From positions 1 through 44,487 of IMG/VR virus record IMGVR_UViG_2718218131_000009: a stretch of 44,487 nucleotides of DNA; one strand, given 5' to 3'. The position numbers and the translations under genes were made by a program. The notes under the pieces are model-generated. The model made no database searches and had not been told where the DNA came from. It was given only the letters and a program-made list of their open reading frames with translations. Shown piece by piece: positions 31,302 through 35,342 of this stretch. The first letter of the stretch is position 1. Every line of letters begins with the position of its first letter. Source of the stretch: a virus (taxonomy: Duplodnaviria > Heunggongvirae > Uroviricota > Caudoviricetes).

Positions 31302-31691
31302 TCAGGCGGCTGCACCCGCCGGTTTCTCATACTTACTGATAGTGATCTCGACCTTCCCTTTCTGGATAACCGGTCCCCACTCCACCAGCATTCTTTTCAC
31401 CTGGCTGTCGTCTTCCCACACCCCCGCGTGGGTCAGGGCGTCAAACAGCGCCTTGTTATAGTTGTCCAGATCGCGGATCCGGTTATCCGGAGGAAACAAC
31501 ACGATCTCCACTGAAGCAGGTGCCGACGTTGGTTTTGGCAGACGACGTAACTGCTCAACTATTGCTGCGCACGCCGCGCTCTGGAATTTGCGCCCCGCCG
31601 CGCTTATCAGGCTTTTACCAGCAAACGCCCCTTTATTAGGGTGTCGCCAGTACGTATTCACGCTGGGCGGGAAAGGTAGGATCAGTTTCAT
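31302..31691 (-). CDS. rusA: Holliday junction resolvase RusA
   Basis: MKLILPFPPSVNTYW... with a conserved acidic catalytic region. Confidence 0.9.
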   Translation of the reverse strand: MKLILPFPPSVNTYWRHPNKGAFAGKSLISAAGRKFQSAACAAIVEQLRRLPKPTSAPASVEIVLFPPDNRIRDLDNYNKALFDALTHAGVWEDDSQVKRMLVEWGPVIQKGKVEITISKYEKPAGAAA

Positions 31692-32014
31692 ACTTTCAGG
31701 CCTCTCTCATGTAACCAGTGGGTTGCACGCAGCCTGGCGTTTTCCTCACCGGCAAGCAGTGAGCGGATAATCCCGACCGCCTCGCTGTCGTCGTCCTTCA
31801 CCGCGGTATGAAGCGTTATCCCCCGGGCCACGCCACGCTTTATCGTGATGACGCCTTTTTTCTCCAGTGCGCGAAGATGCTCCACCGCTGCATTCACTGA
31901 ACGGTATCCCAGCATGGTTGCCACCTCCTGATTGGTTGGCGGGAAGCCACGTTCTTTCTGGTAAGAAATCAGCATATCCAGCACCTGCTGCTGGCATTGA
32001 GTTAACGTCGTCAT
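31688..32014 (-). CDS. LexA N-terminal DNA-binding-domain homolog (no peptidase domain)
   Basis: QQQVLDMLISYQKERGFPPTNQEVATMLGYRSVNAAVEHLRALEKKGVI parallels the LexA winged-helix domain (QQEVFDLIRDH...[32 protein letters not shown]). It is 108 aa and lacks the S24 cleavage domain. Confidence 0.75.
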   Translation of the reverse strand: MTTLTQCQQQVLDMLISYQKERGFPPTNQEVATMLGYRSVNAAVEHLRALEKKGVITIKRGVARGITLHTAVKDDDSEAVGIIRSLLAGEENARLRATHWLHERGLKV

Positions 32015-32664
32015 GCCGCCATCTCCCTGACCAGTTTTTCCGCCTGCTGGCGAACCTGCACCAGAAAGGCTTCACCACATGCCTCAAGTTCATCGCGCCC
32101 GATGTAGCTGATTGCCGGTCCCTTCCAGGTCTTGTCGAAAACAGCAATAGCACCAGCGAAGAAAGCGCCTGTCGGCACCTGCTTCTCATCCTTCGGGATA
32201 AACCAGGCAGGCAGTTCAAAACCAATACGCCCGCGAATAAAAGCAATATGGTCCGCATCTTCCGGCCACCACACTTCGCTGGTGGCAGCTTTGATCAGGA
32301 AAACATAGCGCCCGCCCTTATCACGCATGGCACTGGCATGTTTCATGATGTAACGCATGCCGGTGATGTATTGCCCCTCATGCTGACTGGCGCGGCTGTA
32401 TGGGGGATTACCAAAGGCAGCACCTTTAAGCTCCGCAAGACGTTCTGACCAGTCATGCGCCAGCGCGTTATCTTCCGCCGTGTAATACGCGGCACATTTG
32501 GCGTTATCACCGTCAGTAAACAGATCCAGAACAAACGGGCCAAACAGGGTGTTAATTCCCCAGAAAATGTTGTCCGGCGTGCGCCACTGATCGCCCACTT
32601 CCTTCAGTTCATGGGCTGGTTTGTTCCGCAGTTCCACCAGCGCCTGGCAATATTTATTACTCAT
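32011..32664 (-). CDS. Phage Dam-family N6-adenine methyltransferase
   Basis: WRTPDNIF... and FGNPPYS (NPPY) motifs. Start probably MSNKYCQ at 32664; the track start at 32697 overlaps the upstream gene. Confidence 0.85.
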   Translation of the reverse strand: MSNKYCQALVELRNKPAHELKEVGDQWRTPDNIFWGINTLFGPFVLDLFTDGDNAKCAAYYTAEDNALAHDWSERLAELKGAAFGNPPYSRASQHEGQYITGMRYIMKHASAMRDKGGRYVFLIKAATSEVWWPEDADHIAFIRGRIGFELPAWFIPKDEKQVPTGAFFAGAIAVFDKTWKGPAISYIGRDELEACGEAFLVQVRQQAEKLVREMAA

Positions 32665-33158
32665 TAAGCCCCCACGTAATTCCCTGACAGATACCACTCT
32701 TCACCCGATGCAGCGCGCTTGCTGCTTTTCCGTAAGCACCGCTCACGACGCGCCAGAAAATTGTTTCGTTCTGGCTGGGAGTGGCTTTCACGGAATGCCG
32801 CCATCCACACGGTTGCAGCACGACGGTATAAGCCCCTGGACTCCAGTTCTTCAGCCTGGCGGGTCAGGCACAAAATCACCCGTGGATCGTTAGTGCCGAC
32901 ATAGAAATTGCGCACAGGTCTGGTTTCTCGAACTGGTTGTGGTTCCGGTTCCTGCGCTCTCTCAGTCAGGCGCGGGAAATGTCTGCGTGTATCTCCTTCA
33001 CAACGGTGAGCCACACGCCCACTCTGACGTAACTTGCTTGCTGACTGCAGAACGCGCTGCCGTGAGTAACCTGCAAAAGCATCCGCAATGTCTCCGGAAG
33101 TACACCCCGGATGGGCTTCAATGAATTTCTGAACTTCATTCAAAAGACTCATGATCAC
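32664..33158 (-). CDS. PerC-family-like regulator with N-terminal extension
   Basis: The C-terminal region EELESRGLYRRAATVWMAAF matches the PerC/Pch signature (ELEskGLWRRAA..W). Confidence 0.6.
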   Translation of the reverse strand: MIMSLLNEVQKFIEAHPGCTSGDIADAFAGYSRQRVLQSASKLRQSGRVAHRCEGDTRRHFPRLTERAQEPEPQPVRETRPVRNFYVGTNDPRVILCLTRQAEELESRGLYRRAATVWMAAFRESHSQPERNNFLARRERCLRKSSKRAASGEEWYLSGNYVGA

Positions 33159-33973
33159 CCCCTGAATCCTGCCGGGATCTGGCTGTAGTCCACGTTGTCG
33201 TAACTGGCTTTGAAGTACGGGTCCTCACGTCTGGCTGCAGATACCGCAGGAACTTCCCAGGATTCTTCGAAATGACGATCCGGACCAAAGAACGTGACAG
33301 CCTGTTTCACAAATTGTGTGCCGCTGTTACCCATCGCAGATACCCAGCCCGCGTAGCGTTTCACACCTTCCAGCATGGTTTCGGGGTTTACCCCCTCATT
33401 CAAACGGGCTTTCCAGGCTTTGAAGGCTGCAGATTTTGAATTACCACCAGCACGTTTGGGATATGCCAGCCATGCCTGCTCAAACTCCGGAGAGTATTCC
33501 GGCCGGTTTGAACGAACTCGCACGGACTCATCAACTGATGCACCAACAGCTATTGGTTCATTGACTGGTTCTTTGACTGGTTCAAAAGAGTGACTGGTTC
33601 TGGGTGAATCTCCTGCACTACCCCCTGGTGCAACTCCTGCACTACCTGGTGAATTTGCTGCACCAGATAGTGAATTATTTGCACTACCCCCTAGTGAATC
33701 TCCTGCACCATCCAGATGAAGGAGATAGGTATTACTTGAGTTACCTTTTTCACCTTTCCGGGTGACTTTTTTTACCAGCCCGGACTCACAAAGGGCCGCA
33801 ATATGATTCATCACAGAACGTTTGCTAATCTCGCACTGGTCAGCAATATGCTGGTAGCTGGGCCAGCACTCACCCTGATCGCTGGCATTATCAGCCAGCT
33901 TGATCAGAACCAGTTTTCGCAATGGATTACCCACTCGAATTTTCATCGCTTTAACCATCAGCTCCATACTCAT
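33155..33973 (-). CDS. Replication initiator (O-like, N-terminal winged HTH)
   Basis: N-terminal HTH (SYQHIADQCEISKRSVMNHIAALCESGLV), a low-complexity linker encoded by iteron-like DNA repeats, and a C-terminal domain. ATGA coupling to both neighbours. Confidence 0.7.
   Translation of the reverse strand: MSMELMVKAMKIRVGNPLRKLVLIKLADNASDQGECWPSYQHIADQCEISKRSVMNHIAALCESGLVKKVTRKGEKGNSSNTYLLHLDGAGDSLGGSANNSLSGAANSPGSAGVAPGGSAGDSPRTSHSFEPVKEPVNEPIAVGASVDESVRVRSNRPEYSPEFEQAWLAYPKRAGGNSKSAAFKAWKARLNEGVNPETMLEGVKRYAGWVSAMGNSGTQFVKQAVTFFGPDRHFEESWEVPAVSAARREDPYFKASYDNVDYSQIPAGFRG
33560..33700. repeat. Iteron-like direct repeats inside the replication gene (candidate ori)
   Basis: Three copies of TGACTGGTTC, two of GTGAATCTCCTGCAC and two of CTGCACTACC within about 140 bp. 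Confidence 0.5.
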
Positions 33974-34194
33974 GCTGCACCTCCGAGATGCTTCATGTTT
34001 TTTCCGGAGCGAAAGGCTATAAGCGGCATACTGACGCGGTAATTACGGCCCAACGGTTCACAAATCACTTTCTGACATTCACGGTCAACCAGGCTAACAC
34101 GTAGAACATGCCCTGCAGGCGTGGTGTACCACTGGCCCGGACGAGGACAACGGAAAGTCTGATTGGTAAACCGTTTGAAAATATTCCGGATCAT
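33970..34194 (-). CDS. Hypothetical protein (74 aa)
   Basis: Translationally coupled (ATGA overlaps) to both the Rha-domain gene and the replication initiator. Confidence 0.5.
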   Translation of the reverse strand: MIRNIFKRFTNQTFRCPRPGQWYTTPAGHVLRVSLVDRECQKVICEPLGRNYRVSMPLIAFRSGKNMKHLGGAA

Positions 34195-35342
34195 TTGCGC
34201 CCCCTTACCTCTGAAGGGTTCAGTGACAGATTTATGAGACTGGCCAGTACCGCCGCGTCGTTGATGCGGTCATACAGACTTATAGCCAGCGGGGATTCGG
34301 CTTTTGCCAACATGGGATAAAGCTGCTGCAGCCAGACTTTGTGGATTACCGACAAGTGGGAGTAAAGCACGCTGGCGTTATGTGCGGCATCGCTCAGCGT
34401 GGATGGCCTTGAAAGCTGCTTTTCCATCTGGTTAAAGGCATTGATGTATGCCTCTTTGAACTGGGCAGCACGTTTCCCCGTGAAACCCATAGCAAGAAAC
34501 GCAAAGCCGTCGCGGGTTATTTGATAGCAAGGTAGTTTGCGGCCTGTGCAATCGGTGTAATCACTCACCGAAAAATTGCGGGCAGTGAATGATGCGGAAC
34601 ATTCAAGCGTGCGGATCTTTTTCAGTACATCGTCATGACGTTTGGAGAAGAAGTTGGCAACAGCCAGGGATGAAGTAACAGCCTGACCATCAACGATGGC
34701 AATTTCAGGTTGAGTGAGGGTTGGGATCGTAGCCATGATGGCAGCCTCTTTGGTGATTTTTAATAACTCACCACCAAGGCTTTCCACGACCTTATTGGTG
34801 GTGAGACGTACAGGGGTGGAAATACCGGTCACCAAAGAACCCGGCCCAACCGAAGTTGGCCCTGCACGCCCCACCATAATTTGGGCGTAATGCTGCTCAT
34901 GACACAAAAAAACCGCAAGAGCGCGGTTGTGCGCTTTGGTGAATTCCGGGTTTCCACGCCCGGCACCCGCTTTATAAGGTGCCTGAACAGTGTAACGTCC
35001 CGGAATGGCAGAATCAATGTGCTGGTGGTCCTTCACACTCAACAAAATCACGCCTGAATTTCCACAAAGGACTAAAGCACTCATGCGGGTAGTCTTTGCG
35101 AAGATAGATAACGCGCTGCGTTTCTGGCTCCCAACGAATAACATGGACATAAAGCCCTCTTCCGTCACGAAACCAGCGGTTAAGTTCCTGCACAACTCGC
35201 CCCCCACAGTCAGGTAAAGTTCTCTGTGGTTACTTACAGCCAGGTGATTTGGTAATCTGCATTCATGCCGTAACAACAGGTGTTCAGCGACGCTGACCAC
35301 CAGCTGTTGCGACAAACGGTTATTTGCCGTTAAACTGTTCAT
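34191..35342 (-). CDS. Rha-family regulatory domain protein with ~200-aa N-terminal region
   Basis: C-terminal half (from M203, ATG at 34736) is IPTLTQPEIAIVDGQAVTSSLAVANFFSKRHDDVLKKI, a Rha domain. The upstream 202 codons are in frame and begin with an ATGA overlap to the CII-like gene. Confidence 0.6.
   Translation of the reverse strand: MNSLTANNRLSQQLVVSVAEHLLLRHECRLPNHLAVSNHRELYLTVGGELCRNLTAGFVTEEGFMSMLFVGSQKRSALSIFAKTTRMSALVLCGNSGVILLSVKDHQHIDSAIPGRYTVQAPYKAGAGRGNPEFTKAHNRALAVFLCHEQHYAQIMVGRAGPTSVGPGSLVTGISTPVRLTTNKVVESLGGELLKITKEAAIMATIPTLTQPEIAIVDGQAVTSSLAVANFFSKRHDDVLKKIRTLECSASFTARNFSVSDYTDCTGRKLPCYQITRDGFAFLAMGFTGKRAAQFKEAYINAFNQMEKQLSRPSTLSDAAHNASVLYSHLSVIHKVWLQQLYPMLAKAESPLAISLYDRINDAAVLASLINLSLNPSEVRGRK

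Follow-up and report, generated by a model that had tools for sequence, protein, structure and literature searches.

YfdN, a PerC-family protein with a predicted winged helix, is encoded directly after the replication initiator in SfV-type lambdoid prophages

The gene that follows the O-like replication initiator in the lambdoid prophage analyzed here is yfdN, whose product belongs to the PerC family and carries a predicted winged helix ahead of its PerC domain. The gene lies in a run of overlapping genes, and its place between an initiator gene and a DNA methyltransferase gene recurs in related elements. We give about an even chance to the reading that YfdN is a non-essential early regulator, with a PerC domain that the winged helix would tether to DNA and with synthesis translationally coupled to that of the initiator. 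The whole stretch of DNA that was analyzed (44,487 nucleotides) is referred to below as the window.

Results

Identity and start of yfdN

The yfdN coding sequence occupies positions 32664–33158 on the minus strand; as called in the ORF list it encodes 164 amino acids from a GTG at 33158 and ends in a TAA stop at 32664–32666. It is identified by its Pfam PerC and PHROG 1324 matches, and the C-terminal half of its translation contains QAEELESRGLYRRAATVWMAAFRESHS. RefSeq loci with 100% identical DNA are annotated 'yfdN: PerC family transcriptional regulator', and Uhlich et al. name yfdN 'the K12 unique PerC homologue' (PMC5931665). Given this annotation and the literature on SfV, ST64B and the EHEC Pch proteins, neither the gene nor its family assignment is new. 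A search of 5426 complete E. coli genomes gave a yfdN match in 2667 (49%), yet in the searchable literature we found no direct experiment on YfdN, which is mentioned there in screens or predicted networks only; searches for pchX and SfV orf40 returned nothing relevant.

Proteins 95–99% identical to that of the window are encoded by SfV orf40 and by phages SfII, SfIV, mEp460, Ayreon, 2H10 and the Stx2c/Stx2a phages, while sb43 of ST64B is the same gene at 69% protein identity. YfdN of the E. coli K-12 prophage CPS-53 is likewise the product of this gene, as are SfV Orf40, ST64B Sb43 and the SfII, SfIV and mEp460 proteins, with no material difference. The CPS-53 and SfV-type copies have the same neighbors as the window copy, with the initiator upstream and dam downstream.

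Start calls differ, PGAP choosing the GTG at 33158 and the SfV annotation the ATG two codons later (33152). Since nearly all homologues begin MSL, the real start is probably the ATG at 33152, which would give a protein of 162 amino acids. The junction with the initiator reads GGA TTC AGG GGG TGA TC ATG AGT: the GTG at 33158 overlaps the initiator TGA stop (33155–33157), and an AGGGGG Shine-Dalgarno sequence precedes the conserved ATG. The ribosome-binding site of yfdN thus falls within the final codons of the initiator gene, which probably couples translation of the two.

YfdN is a two-domain member of the PerC family

Pfam PerC (PF06069) matches residues 100–151 of YfdN at 36.1 bits (E 7.8e-09; profile positions 5–56 of 90), above the gathering cut-off of 22.6 bits, and nearly all of the protein is covered by a 264-bit match to PHROG 1324, 'transcriptional activator'. 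The preliminary description, made from the letters alone, had recognized a PerC/Pch signature in the C-terminal region of this reading frame and had named a PerC-family HMM search as its check; the signature is indeed there, and the search bears it out. The core motif LE-x-x-G-[LF]-[YW]-RRAA-x-x-W is present as ELESRGLYRRAATVW in YfdN and as ELEAKGFYRRAAARW in PchE, with which YfdN shares 40% identity over 52 amino acids (E 5e-10) in an alignment confined to the PerC domain.

When 1.8 billion cluster representatives were searched exhaustively, only 100 clusters were returned at E ≤ 0.001. We aligned 35 full-length homologues (24–74% identity) with the window protein, and all 36 two-domain sequences gave a PerC match at E ≤ 0.01, which shows that the reading frame is a genuine, conserved gene that did not arise by chance. 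L105, R113 and A114 are invariant throughout this alignment.

AlphaFold2, run on the 36-sequence alignment, modeled YfdN with a mean pLDDT of 83.7. The N-terminal domain (about residues 3–63; 32970–33152, minus strand) is predicted to consist of helices H1 (5–15), H2 (21–27) and H3 (33–46) followed by a beta-hairpin wing (49–62), the H1-H2-H3 and hairpin arrangement of winged helices such as those of MarR, BlaI/MecI and ArsR. It is joined by a linker (about residues 64–91; 32886–32969, minus strand), with pLDDT block averages of 48–66, no helix or strand, and variable length and sequence across homologues, to the three-helix PerC-family domain (residues 92–146; 32721–32885, minus strand), which contains LESRGLYRRAATVWMAAF. 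The C-terminal tail (residues 147–164; 32667–32720, minus strand) is predicted to be disordered, its last two pLDDT blocks being 54 and 51. It carries an ending characteristic of the subfamily, W-x-L-[AS]-G-x-[YF]-x-G (consensus L-A-G-x-Y-x-G, with G163 nearly invariant), that PchE lacks.

Named winged helix-turn-helix families match the window protein weakly (PHROG 1687, MarR, E 7.8e-05; BilQ, 17 bits), and a few homologues match Penicillinase_R or MarR_2 with E values no better than about 1e-5. The calculated pI is 9.4 for the winged helix and 11 for the PerC domain. A PDB sequence search with YfdN gave no match even at E ≤ 10, a BFVD fold search gave generic winged-helix proteins only (E > 1e-3), and PADLOC gave no defence-system link. 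Several candidate relatives were also set aside. Lambda Ren, suggested by a weak PHROG 142 match (E 0.0068), reached a probability of 10% in profile comparison with the YfdN family and is unsupported; the values were 1.8% for the DUF977 protein of phage Evi, 2.8% for the winged helix of the initiator itself and 0.7% for a 108-amino-acid gene downstream of Vibrio phage initiators.

PerC, from the EPEC EAF plasmid, and PchA, PchB and PchC of EHEC share with YfdN the PerC domain, the motif LE-x-[KR]-G-x-[YW]-RRAA-x-x-W and carriage on mobile elements. They are, however, single-domain proteins of about 90–105 amino acids, whereas the 164-residue YfdN has an additional winged helix and linker and a different C-terminal ending; their genes lie beside effector genes, and yfdN instead lies in the early replication region. 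PchE (ECs1588), of 90 amino acids, also lacks the winged helix. The genes for PchE and for the PerC-like proteins of phage-inducible chromosomal islands (PICI; EcCIEDL933, EcCIMP1_025) do resemble yfdN in that, within a mobile element, they follow genes for replication (primase, ssb); overexpressed PchE has been reported to affect curli and flagella. YfdN is therefore a two-domain subfamily of the PerC family, in which, judging from the model, the PerC domain is fused to a probable DNA-binding domain.

The C-terminal domain could instead act as an ANR-type anti-activator, binding and inhibiting AraC/XylS-family regulators or H-NS, so that YfdN would be a repressor and not an activator. We consider this improbable. 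ANR proteins are described as small and single-domain, which speaks against the assignment for YfdN. NCBIfam ANR_neg_reg (NF033650) does match residues 98–144 (E 3.4e-05), but its 23.6 bits fall short of the curated cut-off, 32 bits, whereas the PerC score exceeds its own. YfdN thus appears related to ANR in fold or sequence while not being a member by the curated threshold. A parallel exists in a PerC-like PICI protein that silences LEE1, for which its authors suggested a possible likeness to ANR (PMC11773190).

yfdN lies within an overlapping early run of genes

The window is a lambdoid prophage whose early right region is ordered as follows: a divergent cI-like repressor, cro-like and cII-like genes, isrK and C4 RNAs with an Ash/Rha protein, a small ORF, the initiator, yfdN, dam, a protein consisting of a LexA DNA-binding domain only, RusA, KilA-N, DUF968 and Q. 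The initiator (33155–33973, minus strand; 272 amino acids) matches Pfam HTH_36 at 44.1 bits and PHROG 270, 'replication initiation protein', at 296 bits; PHROG 1701, 'DnaD-like helicase loader', matches its residues 145–249, and a PDB sequence search with it returned noise only. As the preliminary description had stated, yfdN sits directly after this O-like gene, and it overlaps the initiator stop codon. On its other side, the yfdN stop overlaps the dam ATG (TAATG). The dam gene (32011–32664, minus strand), a phage N6-adenine DNA methyltransferase of the Dam family, matches Pfam Dam at 155.7 bits and TIGR01712 at 255 bits; although its reading frame is listed from a GTG at 32697, it probably starts at the ATG at 32664, as in RefSeq.

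The next gene in the overlapping run (31688–32014, minus strand) encodes the LexA-domain-only protein, of 108 amino acids, which matches Pfam LexA_DNA_bind at 69 bits and gives no Peptidase_S24 match. Most related loci retain this gene as the second one after yfdN. Its product could occupy SOS boxes without being cleavable.

A simple consensus scan found no sigma-70-like promoter on the yfdN strand between 31000 and 37000. For this reason yfdN is probably carried on the early rightward transcript, and its expression in a stable lysogen appears doubtful. The G+C content of the yfdN region is about 50–57%.

Farther upstream, two Rfam matches at gathering level, a C4 antisense RNA (83.6 bits) and the Hfq-binding sRNA isrK (67 bits), lie on the minus strand at 34794–34881 and 34906–34982. 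Both fall inside the 5′ part of the 383-amino-acid Ash/Rha ORF (34191–35342), which may be over-called at its 5′ end. Their presence suggests that the early right operon includes an RNA-controlled antirepressor of the P1/P7 immI or Gifsy-1 IsrK type.

Five iteron-like repeats of 15 bp, GTGMANYTNYTGCAC, lie at 33604–33708, where the initiator gene codes for the linker of its product; their start-to-start spacings are 24, 21, 21 and 24. A search of the window with this pattern gave six matches, five clustered and one elsewhere, against 0.49 expected, and none of 100 shuffles reached six. The cluster is likely to be the origin of replication, a candidate assignment that matches the placement of the lambda ori iterons inside O. 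Three TGACTGGTTCT repeats adjoin the iterons, at 33562–33601.

The initiator and methyltransferase neighbors recur in distant homologues

Genomic context was taken for 10 homologues with 24–32% identity to the window YfdN. For at least five of these genes the immediate upstream neighbor encodes an HTH_36/Phg_2220_C initiator, and the two genes usually overlap by 4 bp; for two more the upstream genes lie beyond the contig ends. Seven of the 10 directly precede an N6-adenine methyltransferase gene, usually overlapping it, and these enzymes come from three Pfam families (Dam PF05869, MT-A70 PF05063 and MethyltransfD12 PF02086). Two homologues are found outside replication modules, one after RecT and one near AlpA.

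Such recurrent pairing with methyltransferases of different Pfam families, together with the overlap of the yfdN stop and the dam start codon in the window, could indicate that YfdN partners or controls Dam, either by setting its expression or by directing methylation to phage DNA or its origin. This seems to us an outside chance. Phage Ayreon has yfdN without dam, phage cdtI has kept dam and lost yfdN, three of the homologues have no methyltransferase neighbor, and the adjacency could reflect nothing more than the shared gene order of a module.

The slot after the initiator holds loader genes in related phages

Lambda P and phage DnaC-like helicase loaders occupy the same slot as yfdN, directly after the initiator and translationally coupled to it. 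The preliminary description had remarked that a loader would be expected at this position and that no P- or DnaC-like gene was obvious. Both remarks hold: a Pfam scan of 20 early-region ORFs found no P-, DnaC- or DnaB-like domain, and closely related initiators are followed by loader and helicase genes in this very slot, which makes the positional argument a fair one. In PhiR49_2 (locus L029, 3501–6602) the initiator is 83% identical over residues 1–250, in AsXd-1 (L013, 3016–6083) it is 69% identical, and in Stx2_14040 (L014, 2497–5697) its C-terminal domain is 67% identical; in all three, DnaC-like and DnaB-like genes follow. POCJ13 and a Klebsiella phage have a DnaC-like gene alone after the initiator, and phage Evi has a DUF977 gene. 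The true DnaC-like neighbors of related initiators match IstB_IS21 at 58–62 bits.

We also observed that the initiators of PhiR49_2, AsXd-1 and Stx2_14040, up to 83% identical to that of the window, switch to a different tail at about residue 250 before the DnaC-like and DnaB-like genes that stand in place of yfdN. The mosaic junction between the alternative cassettes thus falls within the initiator gene, at its 3′ end.

The further implication, that YfdN itself substitutes for the loader, is unlikely. No match to P, DnaC/IstB_IS21 or an AAA+ ATPase was found in YfdN with Pfam, PHROGs or NCBIfam, and it has no sequence or domain similarity to lambda P or to the phage DnaC-like loaders. Unlike those occupants of the slot, moreover, yfdN is naturally deleted in a phage reported to be transmissible. 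Comparison of phage cdtI (L003, 4001–4100) with the window (32667–33158) revealed an exact in-frame deletion of 396 bp, by which yfdN loses 132 of its 164 codons, with almost identical flanks, the same module and dam retained. The phage is titled 'inducible', and a later paper reports that it transfers cdt-I to a recipient strain (PMC4606577); the deletion is thus a natural yfdN knockout in a phage reported as transmissible. The gene is also interrupted by an insertion sequence in Stx2a_WGPS2.

The initiator tail appears to track the absence of a phage helicase

In the window, the initiator ends in IPAGFRG (residues 266–272; 33158–33178, minus strand). We compared this tail in 23 initiators, namely that of the window and those of loci among L002–L007, L009, L010, L012–L017 and L020–L029. 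Directly downstream of 18 of the 23 there is an intact YfdN-like gene or, in cdtI, a deleted one; 17 of these 18, many of which are close relatives and not independent, end in P-x-G-F-R-[GQS], the exception being L020. The P-x-G-F-R ending is also found in Evi, POCJ13 and the Klebsiella phage, and is absent from AsXd-1, Stx2_14040 and PhiR49_2, all followed by DnaC and DnaB, as well as from lambda O and Vibrio phage D67. The arginine codon of the tail varies (AGG, AGA or CGC), which indicates conservation at the protein level.

Within this small sample, the tail appears to track the absence of a phage-encoded DnaB and not the presence of YfdN. It may help to recruit, or dock, a host factor, possibly DnaB. 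The idea that the tail docks YfdN specifically is weakened, the tail being found also with DnaC-like or DUF977 neighbors and being absent from the YfdN-linked L020. A mere Shine-Dalgarno constraint is weakened too, given the variable arginine codon and the retention of the tail in Evi, where it lies 40 nt before the next gene.

These comparisons bear on a version of the loader idea in which YfdN is a replication adaptor, replacing a P- or DnaC-type loader and, as a non-ATPase like lambda P, bridging the origin-bound initiator to host DnaB or DnaB-DnaC. The overlapping stop and start codons in the slot after the initiator, the initiator linkage in at least five of the 10 distant homologues, the loader and helicase genes that fill the slot in PhiR49_2, AsXd-1 and Stx2_14040, the DnaC-like gene that follows the same tail in POCJ13 and the Klebsiella phage, and the lack of loader or helicase genes among the scanned early-region ORFs are all in its favor. 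We nevertheless judge it unlikely, given that cdtI is reported to be inducible and transmissible without most of yfdN, that the Stx2a phage gene is interrupted, that two homologues lie outside replication modules, that the P-x-G-F-R tail is not specific to YfdN, and that the other known roles of the PerC domain are in the control of transcription. The initiator tail would account for the missing loader better than a role of YfdN as loader does.

A link to LEE virulence is not supported

The PerC assignment had also led to the suggestion, in the preliminary description, that the gene might couple the prophage to host virulence through the LEE. PerC and PchA, PchB and PchC activate ler/LEE1 by relieving H-NS silencing, and the Pch mode of action has been described as relief of silencing by H-NS, StpA, Hha and YdgT (PMC4764244). 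Beyond family membership, a Pch-like activity on ler that couples prophage induction to virulence is favored by the presence of yfdN in Stx2c and Stx2a phages of O157, and by the make-up of the K-12 ler::lacZ reporter strain of Uhlich et al., from which yfdN had been removed as the PerC homologue of K-12 (PMC5931665).

We regard this activity as very improbable. Besides K-12 (PMC5931665), about half of the complete E. coli genomes (49%) carry the gene, which is therefore not confined to LEE-carrying pathotypes. Only the group 1 proteins PchA, PchB and PchC raised expression of the ler reporter by at least 4-fold, whereas PchE had an effect of less than 2-fold and PchD none (PMC5931665), and the PICI PerC-like protein represses LEE1; among the PerC relatives, PchE and the PICI proteins thus stand for an absence of ler activation, or for repression. 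The architecture of YfdN differs as well, and its resemblance to PchE is limited to 40% identity over 52 residues. The simple consensus scan, moreover, showed no promoter-like site on the yfdN strand between 31000 and 37000, which makes production of YfdN in a stable lysogen doubtful. The proposed coupling through the LEE is therefore unsupported.

Discussion

The reading that we favor is that of a non-essential early regulator. SfV-type lambdoid prophages widely carry yfdN as an accessory gene, and its product has a predicted winged helix, a flexible linker and a three-helix PerC domain. The gene lies within the overlapping run of initiator, yfdN, dam, LexA DNA-binding-domain and rusA genes that heads towards Q. 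It is probably transcribed from the early rightward promoter, and its translation is probably coupled to that of the initiator, so that YfdN would be made on induction or infection and not in a stable lysogen. By analogy, the basic winged helix may bind DNA and tether the PerC domain, which may act by making protein contacts with nucleoid factors or transcription factors, in the way that Pch relieves silencing by H-NS, StpA and Hha; an H-NS-type partner is likewise an analogy. YfdN would modulate transcription and be dispensable for phage propagation. The analysis establishes what the gene is, its family, its domain architecture, its packing in the operon and its conserved synteny; DNA binding, the partner protein, the time of expression and the target of regulation are inferred. 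YfdN would not be a helicase loader, and the initiator would probably recruit the host helicase itself.

PerC membership, the operon overlaps on both sides, the lack of a promoter-like site of its own, the cdtI deletion, the insertion in Stx2a_WGPS2, the described mechanism of Pch and the absence of ATPase, P, DnaC and DnaB signatures from YfdN count in favor of such a regulator. Two observations count against it: the G+C content of the region is not that of the AT-rich DNA preferred by H-NS, and the linkage to an initiator in at least five of 10 distant homologues is conserved with no obvious need for it in an ordinary transcription factor.

A more speculative proposal, which we think improbable, is that proteins joining a winged helix to a PerC domain are components of replication modules and not generic regulators. 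In lambdoid phages that have lost their own DnaC and DnaB, YfdN and the P-x-G-F-R initiator would then work together at the origin within the initiator gene, where they would capture the helicase or primosome of the host or modulate it. If this were true, PerC would be a fold for protein interactions coupled to replication, later co-opted for LEE activation. For the SfV-type phages more generally, the data point to a lambdoid replication module that would run with no phage-encoded loader or helicase, and the initiator tail that appears to track phage DnaB offers a testable handle on how these initiators may recruit the helicase of the host.
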